A stretch of DNA of 42,386 nucleotides, from NCBI GenBank assembly GCA_009886115.1, contig VFJJ01000060.1, positions 1 to 42,386 on the forward strand. Direction: 5' to 3'. This document shows, in pieces, positions 6,476 through 36,148 of this stretch; the stretch's first letter is position 1; every line of letters starts with the position of its first letter. Source of the DNA: Actinomycetota bacterium. GTDB taxonomy: Bacteria; Actinomycetota; Acidimicrobiia; IMCC26256; VFJJ01. Under the pieces are notes generated by a model. That model saw nothing but the letters and a program-made list of their open reading frames with translations. It was not told the origin of the DNA and made no database searches. The position numbers were made by a program, and so were the translations under genes.

Positions 6476-7371
6476 CGGGGCACCTCTGTCGTGACCCCGG
6501 CGCCATCAGGCGCGCGACTGGGCTCGGTCTCGGCCTGCACCCGGCGGGGGCCACCCAAGGCCGGAGTGTCGACCAGCCGTGAGGCCCGCTCGGCCAGTTC
6601 TTCCTCGGGGACCGTCGCGATGCCGTCAGCGGTGACGATGACGACCGACGGATAGATCCGCCGGATCAGATCGGGGCCACCAGTGGCTGAGTCTTCGTCG
6701 GCCGCTTGGAACAGGGAGGCGAGCGACAGATCGATCACGGCGTCACGGTCGAGCTCAGCGCGCCAGAAGGCCTTGATCCAGTTGCGCGCGTGGACGCCGC
6801 CCGAACCCGTGGTCGCGTAGTCGGCTTCTTCGTAGCGACCCCCGGTGATGTCGTAGCGGAACACCCGTCCCCGCTCCTGACGCCGGTCGTACCCGCAGAA
6901 CAAGGGAACGACCACCAGCCCTTGGAAGGCGGCCGGCAGGTTGGCTCGGATCATCTGCGAGAGCTTGTTGGCTTTGCCCTCGAGCGACAGCGGCCCACCA
7001 GACACCTTCTCGTAGTGCTCGAGCTCGGTGGCGAACAACCGCACCATTTCCATGGCCGGGCCAGCAGCTCCAGCGATGCCGACCACCGAGTGGGCATCGG
7101 CGGGGAACACCTTGTCCATCGCTCTGCTGGCGATGGTGTGACCCTCGGTGGCGCGACGGTCCCCGGCCATGAGCACACCATCCCTGCACCGTATGGTGAC
7201 GATGGTCGTGCCGTGAGGTATCCCCAGCGGCGAGTGGGGAGTCGCGTCACCTCCGGCGGTCGGCAACGCACTTCCGGGAAGGAGGTGCGGCGTGCGACGG
7301 CGGAGCAGGTCGGAGAAGGATGCGCCGGGATCGTCACCAGCGCCGAAGACGGGAAGCGGGAGGTCGGTCAT
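6472..7371 (-). CDS. prcB: 20S proteasome beta subunit with propeptide
   Basis: Propeptide then HG|TT autocleavage site (catalytic Thr1), GDRRATEG, ELEHYEK, SLEGKAN, GSGG, AADEDSATGG. Start at ATG 7371. Confidence 0.96.
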   Translation of the reverse strand: MTDLPLPVFGAGDDPGASFSDLLRRRTPHLLPGSALPTAGGDATPHSPLGIPHGTTIVTIRCRDGVLMAGDRRATEGHTIASRAMDKVFPADAHSVVGIAGAAGPAMEMVRLFATELEHYEKVSGGPLSLEGKANKLSQMIRANLPAAFQGLVVVPLFCGYDRRQERGRVFRYDITGGRYEEADYATTGSGGVHARNWIKAFWRAELDRDAVIDLSLASLFQAADEDSATGGPDLIRRIYPSVVIVTADGIATVPEEELAERASRLVDTPALGGPRRVQAETEPSRAPDGAGVTTEVPR

Positions 7372-7770: not shown

Positions 7771-9282
7771 TCAGCCGGTGAGCCGGGCGATCAGCTCGGC
7801 CGGCGTGCGACACCCCTCGAAGAGCGGTCCGACGTGGGCCCTGGTGCCCCGTAGCGGTTCCATCATCGGGATGCGTTGCAACGGGTCGGAGCCCACGTCG
7901 AGGATCAGGCTGTCCCAGTTGGCGGCCACGACGGCCTCGGGCCAGCGGATGAGGCACTGCCCGCGGAAGTACGCCCGCGTCGTCTCGGGCGGCTCGGTGA
8001 CCGCCGTGATCACGTCGGCCTGGTCGACGAGGCGGACGGCTTTGCCCGAACGCACGACCTTGGCGAACAACGACCGCTCGGGTCGGAGGTCGTGGTACTG
8101 GAGATCGATCAGGGCGAGCTTCGGATCGGCCCACGACAGGTTGTCGCGTTCTCTGTAGGCGTCGAGCAGCGACAACTTGGTGACCCAGTCGAGCTGACCG
8201 ACGAGCTTCATGGGATCCGACTCGAGCGTCTCGAGGGTCTGTCCCCACAGCGACATCACCTGGCGCCCGATGGCCTCCGTGCCGCAGGCCTCGATCAGGC
8301 CGTGCTCGTCGGCGTACTTGCCGGCAAGGCGGAAGAACTCCCACTGGATGTCGAGGGCCGTGCACTTGGTCCCGTCGTGGCGCTCGACGAGGTGCTGCAG
8401 CGTCGGATCGTGCGACACGTCGTGGATCTGTCGTACCGGGTTGCGCAGCGACAGATCGGGGGCCGCTGCTCTCCCCGAACGGGTCAGGAAATCATCCTCG
8501 ATCATGCACAGCACGATGGCGGTGGTCCCGACCTTGAGGAAGGTCGTCACCTCGCACATGTTGGCATCACCCACGATCACGTGGAGGCGCCGGTACTTCT
8601 GCGCATCCGCGTGCGGCTCGTCACGGGTGTTGACGATCGGCCGCTTGAGCGTGGTCTCGAGCCCGACCTCCTCCTCGAAGAAGTCGGCTCGCTGACTGAT
8701 CTGGAAGTCGCAGGCGTCTGCCCCGTTCTCGGAGCCCACCTTCCCGGCGCCAGCGAACACCTGCCGGGTCACGAACCAGGGCAGCAGGTGACGCACCAGG
8801 GTCGAGAACGGCACCGCCCGGTCGACGAGGAAGTTCTCGTGCGTGCCGTAGCTGTTGCCCTTGCCGTCGCTGTTGTTCTTGTGGATCAGGATCTCCTGAT
8901 CGGGGTGCATCGAGCGCTTGGCCGCAGCCATCGAGCGCACGAGGATCTCCTCGCCCGCCTTGTCGTAGAGCACGACCTCGAGGGGATTGGAGCACTCGGG
9001 GGCCGAGTACTCGGGGTGGGCATGATCGACGTAGTACCGAGCTCCGTTGGTGAGCACGGCGTTCACCAGATGGCTCTCGATCTCTGGCGGCATCGAGTCG
9101 GCACGGAGGTGGCCCCGGGCATCGCGCCCGGGCGACTCGTCGTCGAAGTCCCAACCCACCCGTCGATGCTCGACGTATGCGTTGATGAGTTGCGATGACG
9201 CGACGACCGGGTTGGGGTCGGAGACGCCACGCACGGAGATACCGAACTCGGTCTCCATGCTGAGAACCTTGGGCAGTGCCAT
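7771..9282 (-). CDS. dop: Depupylase/deamidase Dop
   Basis: [63 protein letters not shown]; directly upstream of pup. Confidence 0.96.
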   Translation of the reverse strand: MALPKVLSMETEFGISVRGVSDPNPVVASSQLINAYVEHRRVGWDFDDESPGRDARGHLRADSMPPEIESHLVNAVLTNGARYYVDHAHPEYSAPECSNPLEVVLYDKAGEEILVRSMAAAKRSMHPDQEILIHKNNSDGKGNSYGTHENFLVDRAVPFSTLVRHLLPWFVTRQVFAGAGKVGSENGADACDFQISQRADFFEEEVGLETTLKRPIVNTRDEPHADAQKYRRLHVIVGDANMCEVTTFLKVGTTAIVLCMIEDDFLTRSGRAAAPDLSLRNPVRQIHDVSHDPTLQHLVERHDGTKCTALDIQWEFFRLAGKYADEHGLIEACGTEAIGRQVMSLWGQTLETLESDPMKLVGQLDWVTKLSLLDAYRERDNLSWADPKLALIDLQYHDLRPERSLFAKVVRSGKAVRLVDQADVITAVTEPPETTRAYFRGQCLIRWPEAVVAANWDSLILDVGSDPLQRIPMMEPLRGTRAHVGPLFEGCRTPAELIARLTG

Positions 9283-28140: not shown

Positions 28141-28542
28141 GTGCAGCGTTGCGCCATCCGTCCCCTCATCGGTCTCCTCTCGGTCGGGCTCGTGCTCGCC
28201 GTCACGGCATGCGGAGGTGACGACGACACCGGTACCCCAGCGGCGCCGGCCACCCTGCCGCCCGGCGCGGTGATCGTGCCCGCGGCCGACATCTCCTTTC
28301 CCGTCACGGAGTTCACCGCGGCCGCAGGCGACGTGACCATCCAGTACGTGAACGATCCCGGCCTGATCGCGCACACGCTCGTGATCGAGGACGTCGAGCG
28401 GTCCGACTTCTACCTCGAGATCTCTGGATCCGGTGACACAGCATCGGGCACCGTCGCCCTCACCGCCGGCACGTACACGATCTTCTGCGACATCCCCGCC
28501 CACCGCAGCGCCGGGATGGAAGGGACGCTGACGATCACGTGA
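28141..28542 (+). CDS. Cupredoxin (type-1 copper) lipoprotein
   Basis: Signal peptide with lipobox VTA|C, His in IAHTL, and C-terminal YTIFCDIPAHRSAGM (Cys, His, Met ligands). Confidence 0.88.
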   Translation: MQRCAIRPLIGLLSVGLVLAVTACGGDDDTGTPAAPATLPPGAVIVPAADISFPVTEFTAAAGDVTIQYVNDPGLIAHTLVIEDVERSDFYLEISGSGDTASGTVALTAGTYTIFCDIPAHRSAGMEGTLTIT

Positions 28543-28729
28543 CGTGTTCGGTCGAACGGAGCCCCGGGCGGTACAGTCGGCCGCAGCCGGGCCACAGTGG
28601 GCGAGCGACCCGAGCCGGCTGCGAGATCCCCCGAGCGAGAGCTGAGCGGACTGTGGTGAGCGCGTCCCCCAGGCGGCAGGATTCAGCAGGGGCCCTCACG
28701 TCGCCCGGCCGACGTTGCCGATGCCGGAC

Positions 28730-29698
28730 ATGAGTGTGCGACCTGCTCCCACGCCAGCCGATGCGGCCGCCGAGGTTGTCGAGACGGCGCCCGTCCGGCC
28801 CGTGCTCGGCGTCGTCGACGGCTCCCCGCTGATCCCCTGGACGACCCGGATCAGCGCCTACTTCTGGCTCACCAAGCCCCGAGTCGTCGAGTTGCTGCTG
28901 GTCACCACGGTGCCGGCCATGATCCTGGCGGCCGGTGGCTGGCCGGGTCTCGGCCTCACCATCGGCGTCGTGATCGGCGGGGCGATGGCCGCTGGCAGCG
29001 CCAATGCGGTCAACAGCTGGATCGAGCGTGACCGCGACAAGTTGATGCACCGCACCGAGTCGCGCCCGTTGCCGACCGGCGCCGTCGAACCCACGATCGC
29101 GCTGATCTTTGCCATCACCCTGCAGGTGGTGGCCTTCGCCGTGCTCTGGCTGGCGGCCAACCTCCTGTGCGCGCTCCTCACCCTCGGCGCAGCGCTGTTC
29201 TACGTGTTCGTGTACACCATCTGGCTCAAGCCGAGGACGGTCCAGAACATCGTGATCGGCGGCGCGGCCGGAGCCGTACCCGTGCTCGCCGGCTGGGCCG
29301 CCGTCACCGGGACGCTCGATGCCTCGGCGTGGGTCATGTTCGCCATCATCTTCTTCTGGACGCCGCCGCACTTCTGGGCGCTGGCCATCAAGTACCGCGA
29401 CGACTACGCCCGGGGCGGCTTCCCGATGATGCCGGTGGTCAAGGGCATCCCTCGCACCACGACCGAGATGCTCGTCTACACGGTGATCGTGGTCGCCACG
29501 ACGCTGGCGCTCGTTCCCGTGGCCGATACGGGCCCGGTGTACCTCGTCGCCTGCTCGGTGCTCGGCGCGGCGTTCATCTTCGTCGCCGTGCGCTTGCGCC
29601 GTCGTCCCGAGCCGGGATCGGCGATCAAGATGTTCGTGTTCTCGAACCTCTACCTGGCGCTGATCTTCTGCGCCATCACCGTCGACACCTTCGTCTGA
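28730..29698 (+). CDS. ctaB: Protoheme IX farnesyltransferase (heme O synthase)
   Basis: LTKPRV, ERDRDKLMHRTESRPLP, YT.WLKPRT..NIVIGGAAG, WTPPHFWAL, DDYA..GFPM; start at 28721 or 28730. Confidence 0.95.
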   Translation: MSVRPAPTPADAAAEVVETAPVRPVLGVVDGSPLIPWTTRISAYFWLTKPRVVELLLVTTVPAMILAAGGWPGLGLTIGVVIGGAMAAGSANAVNSWIERDRDKLMHRTESRPLPTGAVEPTIALIFAITLQVVAFAVLWLAANLLCALLTLGAALFYVFVYTIWLKPRTVQNIVIGGAAGAVPVLAGWAAVTGTLDASAWVMFAIIFFWTPPHFWALAIKYRDDYARGGFPMMPVVKGIPRTTTEMLVYTVIVVATTLALVPVADTGPVYLVACSVLGAAFIFVAVRLRRRPEPGSAIKMFVFSNLYLALIFCAITVDTFV

Positions 29699-29772
29699 GG
29701 ACTCCACCGGCCCGCTCCGCTGGTCCTGAGCGGACGGGCGTCGAACGCCCCGAGAACGCAGAGGACGCCCGA

Positions 29773-30525
29773 TCAGCGCTCTTCCCAGCGGAACAGACGC
29801 GACGTCACGACGGGGGTGGCGATCGTCCAGGCTGCGAGCACGATGAGGCTCCAGCTGGGCACGTCGGCGCCGTCGGTGAGGACGCCACGGAGGCTCTCCG
29901 ACAACGCTGCGCCGGGAAGGGCCTGCGCGACGAGCTCGACGGCCCGGGGCATCTGCTCGAGGGGGTAGGCCATGCCACCAATGGCCGTGAACACGAGATA
30001 CAGGCCGTTGGCCAGGGCCAGGGTCGCTTCGGCTCGGAGCGTGCCGGCCATCAGGAGACCCAGGGACGCGAAGGCGACCGTCCCGGCGACGACGAGCCCG
30101 AGGGCCGGGACGATCCCGGCAGCGTCGGGACGCCAGTCGAGCGCCACCGCTGTGACGACGAGCACCACGATCTGCAGGGCCTCGATGGCCAGGACCGACG
30201 TGATCTTGGCGGCGAGCAGTCGTCCCCGGGTGAGCGGCGATGCTCCCAGGCGTTTCAGCACGCCGTACCGGCGCTCGAAGCCCGTCGCGATGGCGAGCGA
30301 GACCATCGCCGACGACATCACGGCCAGCGCGAGCACGCCCGGGGTGAGGAACTCGACCGGGGTCTCGACGCCGAGGTCGACGAAGTCGGCCTTCGAGAAG
30401 AAAGCCAGGATCCCGACCGGGATCACCAGGGCCACGAGGAGGCTCTCGCCCCGCCGCAAGGTGAGCGCCAGCTCGACGCGAACCTGCGCCAGGACCGACC
30501 GGGTCATCGACGCCGACGCGCTCAC
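29773..30525 (-). CDS. ABC-2 type transporter permease
   Basis: Six hydrophobic segments, GFERRYGVLKRLGASPL, GTLRAEATLALAN, FRWE end; overlaps the ATPase stop. Confidence 0.9.
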   Translation of the reverse strand: MSASASMTRSVLAQVRVELALTLRRGESLLVALVIPVGILAFFSKADFVDLGVETPVEFLTPGVLALAVMSSAMVSLAIATGFERRYGVLKRLGASPLTRGRLLAAKITSVLAIEALQIVVLVVTAVALDWRPDAAGIVPALGLVVAGTVAFASLGLLMAGTLRAEATLALANGLYLVFTAIGGMAYPLEQMPRAVELVAQALPGAALSESLRGVLTDGADVPSWSLIVLAAWTIATPVVTSRLFRWEER

Positions 30526-31451
30526 TTGAGCGCCCCGTCGTTGGTGAGACGGAGGAAGACCTCTTCGAGCGTGCGCCGTCCCGCCCGGAGATCGCCGATC
30601 GGCTCGTCGCGGTCGCGCAGCCAGCAGGCCAGGTCGGCGACCAACGCCGGGGTGGCCTCGGCCACGATGCGGTACTGCCCGGGCTCGTCCTCGACGATCG
30701 CATCGACGGCCATTGCCAGCGCACCGGCCAGCGAGTCGCGATCGAGCCCCGGACGGGCCGAGAAGCGCGTCTCGCTCGAGGCCAGACCGGCCCCGAGCTC
30801 GCCCGGGGCGCCCAGGGCCACGAGGCGACCCTGATCGACGATCGCCACCCGGTCGCAGAGCCGTTCGGCCTCGTCCATGAAGTGCGTCGTGAGCAACACG
30901 GTGGCGCCGCCGTCGGCCAGGCTGCGCACGAGCTCCCAGGTCCGGGTACGAGCGTGGGGATCCATCCCGGCGGTCGGCTCGTCGAGGAAGACGAGCTCGG
31001 GACGGCCGACGAGTGCGAGGGCGAGCGCCAGGCGTTGACGTTGGCCGCCCGAGAGGCGACGCACATGGCTCGAGGCCACGTCGGTGAGGCCCACGAGCTC
31101 GAGCAGACCCTCGGGCGACTCGGGCTCGGCGAAGAACCCGGCGTACTGGCGCAGCACCTCATGGGCCTTGATCCCGGGGTACAGCCCGCCGTCTTGGAGC
31201 ATGACGCCGACGCGGGGCTTGAGCGCGCGCCCGTCACGCCACGGATCGAGCCCCAGGACCTGTACCGACCCCGCGTCGGGCCGGCGGAAGCCCTCGAGGA
31301 TCTCGACCGTCGTCGTCTTGCCGGCGCCGTTGGGTCCGAGCAGACCGAACACCTCGCCGGGCGCGACCGTGAACGACAGGTCGTCGACGACGGCCCGTTC
31401 TCCGTAGCGTTTGGAGAGGTGATCGACGACCACCGCCGCCTCGACCGGCAC
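30522..31451 (-). CDS. ABC transporter ATP-binding protein
   Basis: GPNGAGKTT, LSGGQ, FLDEPTAG, TTH; GTG 31451 lies 8 nt after TACGCT (leaderless pattern). Confidence 0.93.
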   Translation of the reverse strand: MPVEAAVVVDHLSKRYGERAVVDDLSFTVAPGEVFGLLGPNGAGKTTTVEILEGFRRPDAGSVQVLGLDPWRDGRALKPRVGVMLQDGGLYPGIKAHEVLRQYAGFFAEPESPEGLLELVGLTDVASSHVRRLSGGQRQRLALALALVGRPELVFLDEPTAGMDPHARTRTWELVRSLADGGATVLLTTHFMDEAERLCDRVAIVDQGRLVALGAPGELGAGLASSETRFSARPGLDRDSLAGALAMAVDAIVEDEPGQYRIVAEATPALVADLACWLRDRDEPIGDLRAGRRTLEEVFLRLTNDGALK

Positions 31452-31585
31452 GGCCGGGGAGCGTAGCCAGCTCGACGCCACAACCTCGTTCTGTGTCTCC
31501 ACGACCTCAACAGGGCCTGGAAACCACGCGTCACCCGACCGGAGCGGCCGCGCCGGCCATCGGTGAACCGGGGTAGGTTCTCGCC

Positions 31586-32206
31586 ATGACAGATCGAGCT
31601 GGAGCCCATCGGCTGCTGAGCGTCGGCCGGGCCCTGTCCGACATCACGATCCTCGACGCCCACGGCACCCCGGTGGACGTGGCCTCGTTGGCTCGGCCCG
31701 GCCAGGCGCTCGTGGTCGTTGCCATCAGGTACTACGGCTGAATCCCCTGCCAGGAGTACCTCGTGCAGGTACGCCACCGGGCAGCCGAGCTCATCGAGAC
31801 CGGCGCGAGCGTCGCGGTCGTCGCGACCGGGGCCGACTGGCAGGCCCAGCGCCTCATCGACGACGGGTTCCCCTTCCCGTGCCTGGTCGATCCCGACGCC
31901 CGGCTGTACGAGGCCATGGGCATCACGCGCCTCACCTGGCGTTCGGTGTTCAACCTCCGCAACTGGCGGAACTACCTCCGGGCCCGGCGAGCCGCTCGCC
32001 ACGATGGGATCGGCCAAGGCGAGGTCACCGGAGACTGGAAGCGGCTCTCGGGCGTGCTCGTGGTCGACGGCGCCGGCGTCGTCCGCTTCATCCACCGGGC
32101 CCGCGCGCTGGGCGACTATCCCCCGGTGAGCGAACTCATCGACACCGTTGTTCGTCTCGACGAGCGCGCCACCCGCAGAACCGGATGGGAGGAACGGGAA
32201 CGGTAA
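31586..32206 (+). CDS. Probable selenoprotein, AhpC/TSA (peroxiredoxin-like) thioredoxin-fold protein with U-x-x-C motif
   Basis: ATG 31586 reads MTDRAGAH...LVVVAIRYYG-TGA(31739)-IPCQEYLVQ and continues in frame into ORF 31763..32206. The TGA sits at the first Cys position of the family R-x-x-G-C-x-x-C motif and a SECIS-like hairpin follows. Confidence 0.8.
31747..31784 (+). promoter_or_regulatory. Bacterial SECIS-like stem-loop
   Basis: Upper stem GTACCT/AGGTAC (31756-61, 31767-72) with loop CGTGC starting 20 nt after the TGA; lower stem CTGCC/GGCAG. Confidence 0.7.
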
Positions 32207-32242
32207 GGTACGCCGCCCGAGCGACGCGACGACGGAGTCCCC

Positions 32243-33235
32243 ATGGAACTACGCCCCACCATTCCAGACCGCAACCTGGCGATGGAGCTCGTCAGGGTCA
32301 CCGAGGCCGCAGCGATGGCGGCCGGGCGCTGGATGGGCCGCGGTGACAAGAACACGGCCGACCGGGCGGCCGTCGACGCCATGCGCACGCTCCTCAACAG
32401 CGTGCAGATGCACGGCGTCGTCGTGATCGGCGAGGGCGAGAAGGACGAGGCGCCCATGCTGTTCAACGGCGAAGAGCTCGGCGACGGCACCGACCCGTCG
32501 TGCGACATCGCCGTCGATCCGATCGACGGGACCACGCTCACCTCGTTGGGCCGTCCCAACGCCGTCTCGGTGATCGCGCTCGCCGAGCGGGGAACCATGT
32601 TCAACCCGGGTCCGTGCGTGTACATGGACAAGATCGCCGTGGGCCCCGACGCCGCCGACGTGATCGACATCAACGTACCGGTGATCGACAATCTCCGGGC
32701 CGTCGCCCGGCGCCTCGACCGCAACGTCGCCGACCTCACCGCCGTCATCCTCGACCGCGACCGTCACGCCGGCATCATCAGGGAGTGCCGGGAGGCCGGT
32801 TCCCGTATCCGGCTCATCCCCGACGGTGATGTCGCCGGCGCCATCTCCGTTGCCTGGCCCGACTCGGGTGCCGACATCCTCTTCGGGATCGGCGGCACGC
32901 CCGAAGGGGTGATCGCCGCCTGTGCGCTCAAGTGCCTCGGCGGGAACATCCAGGGCAAGCTCTGGCCCCGAAACGACACCGAGCGCCAGGCCGCACTCGA
33001 CGCCGGCTACGACCTCGATGCCGTGCTGACGATCGACACGCTCTGCAGCGGCGACGACATCTTCTTCTCGGCCACCGGGATCACCGACGGCGACCTGCTC
33101 CAGGGCGTGCGCTACTTCGGCGGCGGCGCCACCACCCACTCGCTCGTGATGCGCTCGCGCAGCGGCACGATCCGCAAGATCGAGAGCACGCACCACTGGC
33201 ACAAGGTCCAGCAGTACCCGCCCGTCGTCGTGTGA
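32243..33235 (+). CDS. glpX: Fructose-1,6-bisphosphatase class II
   Basis: [56 protein letters not shown]. Confidence 0.96.
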
Positions 33236-33256: not shown

Positions 33257-34171
33257 TCAGCTCGCCGCGGCAGCCGCTTCGTACACATCGACGGCGTGCT
33301 TGTAGTTGGCGGCGATCTGGCCGGCTGCTGTGGCACGGTCGATCTCGCCGGCCCGGAAGGCCGTCAGCGGCTTCGACCAGATGGTCCGGCCGATCGCGAA
33401 CCCGATGTAGCCCGGGACGCCTGCGCCCTGACGGAGCCAGAAGTCGACCTTCTCCTGGCTGGCACCACGTCCGAGCACGACACAGCCGACACCGTCGCGA
33501 CCCCCGGCCCGAGCCTGCGCGGCGAGCCGCGCGCAGTCGTCACGGCTGTCGATGCCCTCGATCTTCCAGATGTCGGCCTCGACGCCAGCCGCTTGGTAGT
33601 GCTTGATGACCTCGACCATGAGGTTGGGACGGATCTCGGCGTCGTAGCGGGCGTCGTCGCCATCGACCGTGGCCAACTGGTCGGCCGTCGCCGGCACGAG
33701 GAGCTCGAACAGGAACTTCCGGTCGTGAGCATGCAGCCAGTCGCCGAGGCGCTTGAGCCGCTCGGTTTGACGGGCGTTCATCCCGGGATCGCCCTCGGGG
33801 TTGTGGCGCACCAGCACCTTCGAGAACACGGGGTCGAATTGCTCGATGTGGACGCCGAAGTCGTCGCCGTACTCGAAGTCGAACTCGTCCTGGCCCGACT
33901 TCTCGACGGGCATCGCCAACGACAGGCCCTTGGCCCGGGCGGTCGCGGGAACGTCGCCGCCGTATTGCTCGTCGACGAGCACACCGGCGCTGACCCGGTC
34001 GATGCCCAGGCCCAGCGAGACCTCGAGACCCTCGAAGATGAGGGCCTTGGCGTCGCGAATGACCGGGAGGCGCTCGGCGTCGGGCTTGCCCGCGACCCCC
34101 AGCATCTTCTCGAACGATCCTCGATGGTCGAACGCGAGGATGTACAGCGCCTTGTTGTATCCGAGCGACAC
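33257..34171 (-). CDS. Stand-alone DUF2090 / LacD-like class I aldolase-fold protein
   Basis: LYILAFDHRGSF, LVDEQYG, PVEKSG, KVLV, FLFELL, DIWKIEG (Schiff-base Lys position), VLGRG, GFAIGRTIW; SD GAGGAG before GTG 34171. Confidence 0.82.
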   Translation of the reverse strand: MSLGYNKALYILAFDHRGSFEKMLGVAGKPDAERLPVIRDAKALIFEGLEVSLGLGIDRVSAGVLVDEQYGGDVPATARAKGLSLAMPVEKSGQDEFDFEYGDDFGVHIEQFDPVFSKVLVRHNPEGDPGMNARQTERLKRLGDWLHAHDRKFLFELLVPATADQLATVDGDDARYDAEIRPNLMVEVIKHYQAAGVEADIWKIEGIDSRDDCARLAAQARAGGRDGVGCVVLGRGASQEKVDFWLRQGAGVPGYIGFAIGRTIWSKPLTAFRAGEIDRATAAGQIAANYKHAVDVYEAAAAAS

Positions 34172-34327
34172 GATCAGTCTCCTCGTCGAGCGGCCGTGAA
34201 CGACCTGCATGAGCGGTGCGGCACGCCTCGACCCGCCTCGACCCGTTCGACGGGTCTGGTGACGCGGCGGCGGCCGAGTGACGCTATCAGCGCCGCTGAA
34301 CCATCTCGGACACGGCACTGGGCCGGA

Positions 34328-35353
34328 TCAGCCGAAGAAGATCTCGGCGGTCTCGTACAGGTCGGGGTCGATGGTCTTGAGCCGATCGGTTGCTTCGTGG
34401 AGGGTCACCAGCTCGATCTTGGTGCCCCGCAGTGCCGGCATGGTGCCCAGCCTTCCGGCGTGGACGGCGTCGATGGCGGCGACGCCGAGGCGTGTGGCCA
34501 GCACCCGGTCGTGGGCGTTGGGGGTGCCACCCCGCTGCACGTGGCCGAGGATCGTCACCCGCGACTCGAACCCCGTCCGGCGCTCGACTTCGCGGCGAAC
34601 CACATTCGAGATCCCCCCCAGTCGCGGACGGCCCGATTCGTCGAGGTCGTACTCGGGCGCGTCGATCGTCCCGGGCCGGGGGAAGGAGCCCTCGGCCACC
34701 ACCACGATCGAGAACGAGGCCCGGGCGTGTCGTTGCCGCAGCCGCTCGCACACCTCGTCGATGTCGAAGGGCCGTTCCGGAACGAGGATCACGTCGGCAC
34801 CCCCGGCCATGCCCGCGTACAGCGCGATCCAGCCCGTGTGCCGGCCCATCACCTCGACCACCATGACCCGGTCGTGCGACTCGGCCGTGGTGTGCAGCCG
34901 GTCGATGGCGTCGGTGGCGATCTGCACTGCCGTCTGGAAGCCGAACGTGACATCCGTGGCATCGATGTCGTTGTCGATGGTCTTGGGCACGCCGACGATC
35001 GGGACGCCCTGGTCGGACAGGATGCGTGCCACCGACAGCGTGCCCTCGCCGCCGATGGCGATGAGCGCGTCGATGCCGCGCCGACCGAGGGTGGCCCGGA
35101 GGATCTCGACCCCGTCGGGCGTGCGGAGCGGCGTGTCGCGGGAGGTGCCCAGCATCGTGCCCCCCCTGTGCAGCATCCCCCGGGTGTTGGCGATGCTGAG
35201 CTCGATGGCCACGTCGTCGAGCGCGCCTCGCCAACCGTTCCTGAACCCCACGAAGGTGTCACCGTGGACGCGTTCTCCCTGGCGGACCACGGCCCGGATC
35301 ACGGCGTTCAGCCCCGGGCAGTCGCCGCCGCCCGTCAACACTCCCACTCGCAC
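34328..35353 (-). CDS. pfkA: 6-phosphofructokinase (actinobacterial type, probably ATP-dependent)
   Basis: VLTGGGDCPGLN, GGTMLGTSR, IGGEGT (Gly at the specificity position), PKTIDND, EVMGRH, LGHVQRGG. Confidence 0.95.
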   Translation of the reverse strand: MRVGVLTGGGDCPGLNAVIRAVVRQGERVHGDTFVGFRNGWRGALDDVAIELSIANTRGMLHRGGTMLGTSRDTPLRTPDGVEILRATLGRRGIDALIAIGGEGTLSVARILSDQGVPIVGVPKTIDNDIDATDVTFGFQTAVQIATDAIDRLHTTAESHDRVMVVEVMGRHTGWIALYAGMAGGADVILVPERPFDIDEVCERLRQRHARASFSIVVVAEGSFPRPGTIDAPEYDLDESGRPRLGGISNVVRREVERRTGFESRVTILGHVQRGGTPNAHDRVLATRLGVAAIDAVHAGRLGTMPALRGTKIELVTLHEATDRLKTIDPDLYETAEIFFG

Positions 35354-35440
35354 CAACCCAGTCTCGCGTACTTCGCCGACAGCAGCGTCGACACTCGGGC
35401 GGGGGTACCCTGGTCTCGACCGAACGACCAGGATCGGAAG

Positions 35441-36148
35441 ATGACCATCACCACCGTGCTGCTCGACTTCTACGGGACCCTGGCCCGAGCCGTCCGTTGG
35501 GGGACCTCGTTCGACGTCATCCTCGAGCGCCACGGCGCGAGCATCTCGGCGCTGGTCCGAGAGCGGTGGACGAGCGACTCGTACGACGGCCACGACCTGT
35601 CGGAGCACTCCGGGTCACGCCAGGCCTACGTGGAATGGGAGCTGGCGCGCTTCGAGCGGCTCGCCGGCGACGCCGGCATCGCACCGGCCCGAGCTCGCGA
35701 CGTGGCCCAGGAGATGTGGGACGCCGCCAAGGGCTACGAGCTCGAGCTCTACGACGACGTGCCCGATGCCCTCGAATCCTTACGCGACAAGGGCTTGCGC
35801 CTCGTGATCTGCTCGAACTGGGACTGGGATCTGCCGGAGGTGATCGAGTCGCTCGGTCTCGCCCCGCACTTCGATGTCGTGGTCACCTCGGCGCGGGCCG
35901 GGTCGCGCAAGCCCCATCCGCAGATCTACCGGCACACGCTCGAACGGGCCGCCGTCGGAGCCGGCGAGGCCGTGTTCGTGGGCGACAGCTGGGGGCCCGA
36001 CGTGGAAGGTCCGCGCGCTGCCGGAATCCGGGCCGTGCACATCGCCCGCACCGACCGCGACCCCGAGCCCAGCTGGCCGGCCCACGACGCCCTGCCGACG
36101 GGCACCCATCGCATCGTCGATCTCGGCGCACTGATCGAGTTGCTCTGA
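35441..36148 (+). CDS. HAD-superfamily hydrolase
   Basis: LLDFYGTL, CSNWD, RKPHP, FVGDSWGPDVEG. Confidence 0.9.
   Translation: MTITTVLLDFYGTLARAVRWGTSFDVILERHGASISALVRERWTSDSYDGHDLSEHSGSRQAYVEWELARFERLAGDAGIAPARARDVAQEMWDAAKGYELELYDDVPDALESLRDKGLRLVICSNWDWDLPEVIESLGLAPHFDVVVTSARAGSRKPHPQIYRHTLERAAVGAGEAVFVGDSWGPDVEGPRAAGIRAVHIARTDRDPEPSWPAHDALPTGTHRIVDLGALIELL

Follow-up and report, generated by a model that had tools for sequence, protein, structure and literature searches.

The stretch of DNA analyzed here (the window) is a 42,386-nucleotide contig with a G+C content of 70% (NCBI GenBank accession VFJJ01000060.1) from the draft genome of an uncultured member of the Acidimicrobiia. Positions 31586 to 32206 on its positive strand carry a reading frame that opens with an ATG, runs through 51 sense codons to a TGA at 31739 to 31741, and then remains open until a TAA at 32204 to 32206. 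Since an in-frame TAG stands at 31574 to 31576, 9 nucleotides (nt) upstream, the ATG at 31586 is the earliest possible start. With the TGA read as selenocysteine (Sec or U), the frame comprises 206 residues, and the context of the TGA becomes A-I-R-Y-Y-G-U-I-P-C-Q-E-Y. This TGA is the only one in frame, and neither another stop nor a frameshift was found in the gene. A preliminary description of the locus had proposed a hidden selenoprotein, with an ATG 6 nt after a TAGGTT hexamer and the TGA within the motif RYYG-U-IPC; the sequence and its translation bore out this layout. From the translation, Pfam and NCBIfam matches, a structural model, and substitution rates, we consider it highly probable that the frame is an intact gene for a predicted selenoprotein, a PRXL2/SelL-related U-x-x-C oxidoreductase in which UGA codon 52 specifies Sec.

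Under genetic code table 11, the same frame is split into open reading frames (ORFs) at 31586 to 31741 (51 amino acids [aa]) and, from a GTG start, at 31763 to 32206 (147 aa). The latter is the window's own database protein (P0002; sources, NCBI and Logan). It lacks the active site, both Sec52 and the predicted resolving Cys55 (TGC, 31748 to 31750), as had been anticipated for the output of ordinary gene callers. Among 25 database homologues, 23 are C-terminal pieces of 118 to 147 aa. Public protein collections thus contain the gene, like most of its relatives, as C-terminal fragments without an active site, and the counts of redox enzymes and selenoproteins in Acidimicrobiia are consequently too low.

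The G+C contents at codon positions 1, 2, and 3 were 0.73, 0.49, and 0.82 before the TGA and 0.74, 0.49, and 0.88 after it (0.67, 0.47, and 0.92 in the neighboring glpX gene). This likeness on the two sides indicates that one frame is coding throughout. In comparison with a congeneric genome (G001), the ratio of nonsynonymous to synonymous substitution rates (dN/dS) was 0.23 over the 51 codons 5' of the TGA and 0.35 over 140 codons 3' of it; purifying selection acts on both sides. The TGA was also sought in contigs assembled from three sequencing runs of two studies, and none of them carried TGC or TGT at this codon; these were assemblies and not raw reads, so rare variants could escape. A contig of run X2, from another study, spans 31400 to 32400 with a single difference, at 31553, and one of run X3 spans 31495 to 31955 with differences at 31545 and 31553 only; both keep the TGA. 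The contig of run X1 is identical, and this run may be the source.

Conservation of the TGA and the selenocysteine machinery

A six-frame search of 60 relatives (61 genomes with the window's own, G000) gave matches in 32 genomes. Thirty loci were translated; 22 of them carried the motif, and eight weak partial matches (L041 to L048) were left out. Two clades were apparent, each with a Sec form and a Cys form. In the clade of the window, the Sec form RYYG-U-[IM]PC was found in G000, G001, G017, G035, G011, G037, and G049, with 38 to 78% identity to the window protein, and the Cys form RY[YF]G-C-LPC was found in G050, G056, and G043. The paralogous clade comprised the Sec form RHFG-U-L[LH]C (G005, G025, G054 [unpublished], G009, G053, G041, G060, G024, G044, and G028) and the Cys form RHLA-C-LPC (G031 and G048).

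The TGA occupies one column across the orthologues of seven genomes of the order. Because it is conserved across genomes, its presence in frame is far beyond chance. Comparison of homologues at this codon, which the preliminary description had proposed as a check, revealed TGA in many and Cys in others: the three Cys-form genomes of the window clade and the proteins P0005 and P0006 have Cys there, and the column is either C or U throughout our protein alignment (A1). The Cys forms are single proteins of 172 to 181 aa. A degenerate DNA pattern for YYG-U-IPC retrieved at least 120 stretches from metagenome contigs. Of the 80 metagenome loci listed, 29 were true homologues with the TGA, and 51 were chance matches in unrelated frames. 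Scanning the genome contigs with the window protein gave five loci, three of which coincided with loci already found (L021, L022, and L028); L052 and L053, with 29 to 30% identity to the window protein and no match to the motif pattern, were left out. The selenoprotein is 78% identical between G000 and G001, compared with 92% for the flanking glpX and ABC-transporter ATPase, and therefore evolves faster than its neighbors.

The source assembly, in which the window is contig C27, amounts to 5.45 Mb in 224 contigs and is 95.6% complete with 3.0% contamination. A search for the Sec machinery, likewise proposed beforehand, recovered all four components above their curated cut-offs. The selA gene lies at 8493 to 9821 of contig C73 (458.7 bits; cut-off, 267.9) and is adjoined by selB (293.7 bits, or 320.5 when summed with a C-terminal piece). 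The same contig carries tRNA-Sec (66.2 bits), which ARAGORN identified as tRNA-SeC with the anticodon TCA, and selD is found on contig C57 (398.4 bits). In this genome, TGA terminates 1,085 of the 1,305 long ORFs whose GC pattern marks them as coding. It is also the stop codon of six (L020, L024, L025, L023, L026, and L027) of the eight other clade genes whose ends were read. TGA is therefore a normal stop codon, and the recoding is local and does not reflect a changed code. Of the three outcomes named beforehand as grounds for refutation (missing Sec machinery, TGC or TGT at the codon, and homologues all without TGA there), each was looked for and none was observed.

In each of the 17 genomes that carry a U-form, selA exceeded the cut-off, compared with 30 of 61 genomes overall. 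Among the five genomes with Cys forms only, selA was missing from three (G050, 82% complete; G043, 70%; and G048, 96%) and present in two. The lineage had been described beforehand as one in which Sec is little described. This holds for the literature, where selenoproteins are scarcely treated together with Acidimicrobiia, and fails for the biology, given selA in about half of the genomes of the order. The passages on Sec in Actinobacteria in Peng et al. (2016; PMC5029168) do not mention Acidimicrobiia. A 2026 preprint, where it deals with Actinomarina, reports Sec machinery and about five predicted selenoproteins per genome and calls them previously unreported (10.64898/2026.04.03.716425). 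The present gene is a further indication that Sec is in wide use among Acidimicrobiia of soils and sediments.

By our checks, the genome of the window has at least seven probable selenoprotein genes. A genome-wide screen based on an open frame, the G+C content at third codon positions (GC3), and a UxxC-like motif returned 383 candidates, mostly antisense-frame noise, and the window gene itself failed the GC3 filter of ≥0.85. The screen served only to pick, by eye, one RHFG-U paralogue and five UGSC-type ORFs, which were then checked. The paralogue (L054), a second gene of the same superfamily, lies on the negative strand at 616 to 1158 of contig C92 and encodes a 181-aa protein with the motif RHFG-U-LLC and 30% identity to the window protein; it scored 108.4 bits on the NCBIfam model NF040769, under the cut-off of 120, and has a family-type hairpin, GCGC-AGUU-GCGC. 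The UGSC-type ORFs, at 2897 to 3442 of C149 (negative strand), 3922 to 4452 of C179 (positive), 28618 to 29313 and 8695 to 9471 of C101 (both negative), and 148648 to 150357 of C193 (positive), have an in-frame TGA within U-G-[SA]-C. All five matched NF041046, “UGSC family (seleno)protein,” with 57.7 to 144 bits, one of them above its cut-off of 125. In three of the five, a GUG loop lies at nt 23 to 25 from the U of the UGA (GU at nt 23 and 24), and the C193 copy has a long C-terminal fusion of about 390 residues in which no NCBIfam match was found.

Fold, active site, and known relatives

In Pfam, the best match of the window protein was PF13911, AhpC/TSA_2 (47.9 bits; threshold, 27; E = 2.1e-12), with residues 66 to 173 aligned to positions 6 to 113 of the 114-position model. 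PF00578 (35.7 bits; cut-off, 26) and PF08534 (33.2 bits) also exceeded their thresholds. The sole NCBIfam match was NF040769, “SelL-related redox protein” (94.3 bits; E = 6.5e-27), which aligned over almost its full length (residues 18 to 187 on positions 4 to 172 of 173) and shares the motif R-x-x-G-[U/C]-x-x-C; the RHFG-U clade and the Cys forms of the order match it too. Among the relatives tested, only L029 (122.9 bits) and the Cys-form L031 (139.8 bits) passed the cut-off of this model, and L021 (117.5 bits), L025 (104.1 bits), and L023 (107.1 bits) fell under it, as did the paralogue. The RYYG-U-IPC clade is on this account a neighboring, uncurated subfamily, narrowly below the cut-off of the only curated model able to rescue its annotation. 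In the literature searched, no mention of NF040769 or of “SelL-related” was found.

The structure was modeled with AlphaFold from an alignment of 17 rows; the model had a mean pLDDT of 93.2 and a pTM of 0.88 and formed one compact domain. In the model, a strand at residues 42 to 46 directly precedes U52 and is followed by a helix at 53 to 64, so that U52 is predicted to sit at the helix N terminus, where thioredoxin-fold proteins classically place the first Cys of their CxxC motif. Termination at the TGA would cut this modeled domain after its first strands. Four positions do not vary in alignment A1 (R48, C/U52, C55, and D102), and the active-site motif reads R48-Y-Y-G-U52-I-P-C55. True peroxiredoxins carry the motif P-x-x-x-T/S-x-x-C. 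This motif was looked for at the U52 site and was not found, there being no Thr or Ser three residues before U52, and thiol-disulfide chemistry would therefore be expected rather than peroxidase activity. CxxC-type chemistry thus appears more likely from the sequence; the model and the alignment show the fold and where the motif lies, and the chemistry we infer from the family.

By sequence, the nearest protein of solved structure is human prostamide/prostaglandin F synthase (PGFS, or PRXL2B; PDB entries 9us9 and 9usa). The match of 9us9 to the window protein had an E value of 2.1e-15 with a profile, over positions 16 to 174, and of 2e-08 with the single sequence. C44 and C47, the CxxC of human PGFS, align with U52 and C55; the title of 9usa refers to the C44S/C47S double mutant of PGFS. 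Foldseek aligned the model with human PGFS with TM scores of 0.62 and 0.77 at 24% identity, and its other matches were Bcp/PrxQ and 1-Cys peroxiredoxins at 12 to 20% identity. The human enzyme is, however, eukaryotic and has Cys in place of Sec, and 24% identity gives no hint of prostanoid activity in the bacterial protein. Eukaryotic SelL, the namesake of NF040769 and reportedly the subject of Shchedrina et al. (2007), resembles the window protein in its Prx-like fold and in having Sec in a CxxC-equivalent motif. In SelL, that motif is a U-x-x-U diselenide motif, whereas the window gene has a single TGA, with TGC at codon 55.

Both the protein type and the recoding mechanism are already known. 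Catalogues have included Prx-like and Trx-like selenoproteins with UxxC from the mid-2000s onward, and the window gene is an added case of the former. Prx-like 1, 2, and 3, all with UxxC, appear among the entries of the GOS survey, which also describes SelL as Prx-like (Zhang and Gladyshev 2008, PMC2398784). The selenoprotein entries of a 2026 review include “Prx-like thiol:disulfide oxidoreductase, PF00578, UxxC/UxxU”; the nearest entry among them is “Peroxiredoxin-like family protein, cd02970,” with UxxS and not UxxC (PMC13188914). The terms PF13911, NF040769, and SelL are absent from the main text of that review; the supplementary lists of the papers cited here may nevertheless include this clade. 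With the Prx-like UxxC selenoproteins, as these sources present them, the window protein shares an AhpC/TSA-type thioredoxin fold, Sec as the first residue of U-x-x-C, Cys homologues in other organisms, and its prediction from Sec/Cys pairs together with a downstream hairpin. It differs in that they were defined on PF00578, PF08534, or PF04592, and its own best match is PF13911.

Hairpins downstream of the UGA

In 30 of 33 aligned U-forms, a hairpin forms between columns 21 to 28 and 33 to 40, counted from the U of the UGA. Over the 33 sequences, 89.0% of the cells were paired, compared with 28 to 67% when the 3' arm was slid by 1 to 3 columns, and the pair 25-36 occurred as GC in 13 sequences, GU in 13, UG in 6, and AU in 1. 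None of 500 shuffles reached the observed pairing or covariation score, a result that relatedness alone can yield. The loops of this family hairpin (AGUU, AGGU, CGUGUU, CGGGUC, or CGGGUA) start 24 to 25 nt past the UGA. The segment GCGCAGTTGCG, from which this hairpin forms, was invariant in all 15 genome U-forms outside the window's genus, in both clades, and includes the Leu codon TTG, which makes up 8.4% of the Leu codons in G000. Cys forms have neither the family hairpin nor the peptide A-Q-L-R, in keeping with a constraint that acts on the RNA.

The window, its congener G001, and the distant metagenome locus L079 carry another form. In the window, the probable upper hairpin of a Sec insertion sequence (SECIS) lies at 31756 to 31772 on the positive strand and consists of GUACCU (31756 to 31761), the loop CGUGC (31762 to 31766), and AGGUAC (31767 to 31772). 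In both the minimum free energy and the centroid structure of RNAfold, GG/CC and CUGCC/GGCAG pairings extend it to a stem-loop at 31747 to 31784. The perfect 6-bp stem, the G in second place in the loop, and the loop start 20 nt past the UGA are present as first described. The loop holds G25 and U26, numbered from the U of the UGA. Under the bSECISearch rule for bacterial SECIS elements, the loop lies 16 to 37 nt after the UGA with a G in the apical loop. The window hairpin agrees with this rule, so that the SECIS-like placement claimed for it stands; the statistical weight of the agreement is modest.

This window form, G-UAC-CUC-GUG-CAG-GUA-C, folds with its loop 4 to 5 nt nearer to the UGA than the family form. 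Three features hint at a function for it. Its arms are identical in the window, G001, and L079, whose sequences differ elsewhere. In L079, a synonymous CUC-to-CUG change, together with GUG to GUC, turns the loop-closing C-C mismatch into a G-C pair, giving 7 bp and the loop GUC. The Val codon GTA, which accounts for 1.3% of the Val codons in G000, is kept in all three sequences, and its A (A33) pairs with U19. The GU of the loop, at nt 25 and 26, lies between those of the UGSC genes (nt 23 and 24) and of the paralogue in the same genome (nt 30 and 31). The E. coli fdhF-type SECIS has G23 and U24 in its loop. Like that element, the window hairpin stands directly 3' of the UGA and exposes GU in a short apical loop some 20 nt on; it differs in having G25 and U26, and the two share no sequence similarity. 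Rfam returned no match at the gathering threshold over the whole window, which is uninformative, as Rfam has no suitable bacterial SECIS model; at E ≤ 10, positions 31680 to 31860 gave only irrelevant weak matches to proV (E = 2.6) and Acido-Lenti-1 (E = 6.2).

The two forms are accompanied by different peptides. The family hairpin forces A/S/T-Q/R-L/V-R-E together with the rare codon TTG, and the alternative goes with L-V-Q-V-R and forces the rare GTA. Across loci L055 to L134, the U-form peptide tracked the hairpin: A/S-Q-L-R-E occurred with AGUU loops, A-Q-V-R-E with AGGU, A/T-R-V-R-E with 6-nt loops, and L-V-Q-V-R with the shifted hairpin. The protein sequence is in this way coupled to an RNA signal inside the coding region. 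We lean slightly toward the view that the SECIS was rebuilt within one orthologous family, with the family hairpin and GUACCU(G)...(C)AGGUAC as mutually exclusive solutions. The alternative form might have two separate origins. A tree built from 36 partial proteins placed L079 among sequences of the main type (support, 92/85) and the window and G001 with other sequences (94/81). An approximately unbiased (AU) test did not reject a single clade of the window, G001, and L079 (P = 0.19), and two origins are therefore not shown. If both hairpins work, the family would be a natural experiment on the coevolution of a coding-region recoding signal with protein sequence and would show how much spacing SelB tolerates. 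This variation is the only part of the locus that might interest recoding specialists, to whom the rest would be unsurprising.

Readings of the UGA and surroundings of the gene

In the reading we favor, SelB carrying Sec-tRNA(Sec) would bind the mRNA hairpin at 31756 to 31772 as the ribosome nears the UGA. The loop CGUGC would present G25 and U26 to SelB, and Sec would be delivered in place of termination. We infer this delivery step because both the machinery and the hairpin are present. The predicted product, cytoplasmic and 206 residues long, has a thioredoxin fold and belongs to the AhpC/TSA_2 (PRXL2/SelL-related) group. Its redox pair, Sec52 and Cys55, would cycle between the selenol/thiol and selenenylsulfide states, and the protein would act, as judged from its family, as an oxidoreductase of the thiol-disulfide type.

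Several findings count against this reading or parts of it. The Sec machinery lies on contigs other than that of the window, in an assembly of 224 contigs with 3% contamination. Related genomes are not independent samples, and for that reason the association with selA was given without a P value. The 94.3 bits of the window protein on NF040769, its best and only NCBIfam match, are under the curated cut-off of 120, which makes it a relative and not a member by NCBI's rule. Neither the window nor G001 retains the family hairpin; in the window, three contiguous pairs are left (27-34, 26-35, and 25-36), and the closing pair 28-33 is lost (alignment A3). Confidence in the SECIS assignment is accordingly lower for the window gene than for its relatives. 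The 62-nt fold of the window has a free energy of -19.1 kcal/mol (z = -0.76), which is not exceptional; an equally good fold was reached by 39 of 200 shuffled sequences. Hairpins with at least six perfect pairs, a loop of 3 to 14 nt with G in its first two bases, and a loop start at 16 to 37 nt occurred at 7,321 of 84,606 window positions (8.7%). A stricter rule, picked after the hairpin had been seen (loop of at most 6 nt, with GU at loop positions 2 and 3), left 286 of these 84,606 positions (0.3%). There is no true covariation, the hairpin being found in three sequences only, with identical arms. Taken alone, the window hairpin is weak evidence. Because three sequences with identical arms do not amount to covariation, we regard its function as a SECIS as likely and go no further. 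The SECIS-like hairpin of the preliminary description thus survives as a probable SECIS, one that is not the usual hairpin of its family and whose energy and chance frequency are not strong.

How else the UGA might be read can be judged from the same data. A lone in-frame stop resembles a fresh nonsense mutation, and annotation treats the gene in that way. A former Cys gene, now decaying after a change of TGC or TGT to TGA, is nevertheless next to impossible here: the same TGA recurs in 29 metagenome loci and in seven genomes with 38 to 78% protein identity, the 140 codons past it have a dN/dS of 0.35, and beyond it the codon-position GC pattern is kept without more stops or frameshifts. Nor do we give much credence to two separate products, with termination at UGA-52 and an independent 147-aa protein from the GTG at 31763. 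That ORF exists and is what the databases contain, but the predicted fold is one compact domain whose first strands and redox motif lie before or at the UGA, and the invariant R48, C52, and C55 fall outside the 147-aa piece. Moreover, the Cys forms are single proteins of 172 to 181 aa, and codons 1 to 51 are under purifying selection, all of which makes this arrangement very unlikely.

Bacteria show low-level UGA read-through, which would favor decoding of UGA-52 without Sec, by near-cognate Trp or Cys insertion; a reassigned code would have the same effect. Against this, TGA is the main stop codon of the genome (1,085 of 1,305 long ORFs), every genome found to carry a U-form also has selA (17 of 17), and the site is the catalytic Cys column, where replacement by Sec is a known pattern; such decoding is extremely improbable. 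The remaining alternative accepts that the UGA is read through and holds that the SECIS is another structure, or that recoding became inefficient or was lost in the genus after the family hairpin decayed. The broken family hairpin in the window and G001 and the modest statistical support for its replacement speak for it. However, the replacement arms are identical in three otherwise differing sequences, a synonymous change gives L079 a longer stem, the rare GTA that provides the A33-U19 pair is kept in all three, the GU of the loop lies between the positions seen in the UGSC genes and the paralogue of the same genome, and the gene remains under purifying selection. We consider this alternative rather unlikely.

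Upstream of the selenoprotein gene, and divergent from it, an ABC-transporter ATPase gene occupies 30522 to 31502 on the negative strand. On the same strand as the selenoprotein gene and 36 nt 3' of it, glpX (32243 to 33235) encodes a class II fructose-1,6-bisphosphatase (PF03320; E = 1.3e-144). Both neighbors were kept only in the congener G001 and were absent within 1.5 kb of the other orthologues; no functional link is therefore drawn. An ORF at 33296 to 36148 (positive strand, 950 aa) matched only HAD-type hydrolase domains in Pfam, over residues 718 to 918, and its first 700 or so residues, which matched no family, may stem from the choice of start codon or form an N-terminal region of a novel type. 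Two further long ORFs, at 28535 to 32095 (negative strand, 1,186 aa) and 29167 to 30834 (positive strand, 555 aa), overlap real genes, match no Pfam family, and are probably spurious high-GC frames.

The actinobacterial -10 consensus is TANNNT. The hexamer TAGGTT at 31574 to 31579 on the positive strand, at -12 to -7 relative to the ATG, fits this consensus and, putatively, a leaderless start as the promoter of the mRNA. It overlaps GGGGTAGG, which could equally be a weak ribosome-binding (Shine-Dalgarno) site. A promoter scan for the sigma-70 consensus found no site. Orthologues other than that of G001 have AGGAG-type sites before their starts. In G001, the 15 nt ccggggtaggttctc before the ATG, also given as ccggggTAGGTTctc, are conserved, and the DNA further 5' is not.

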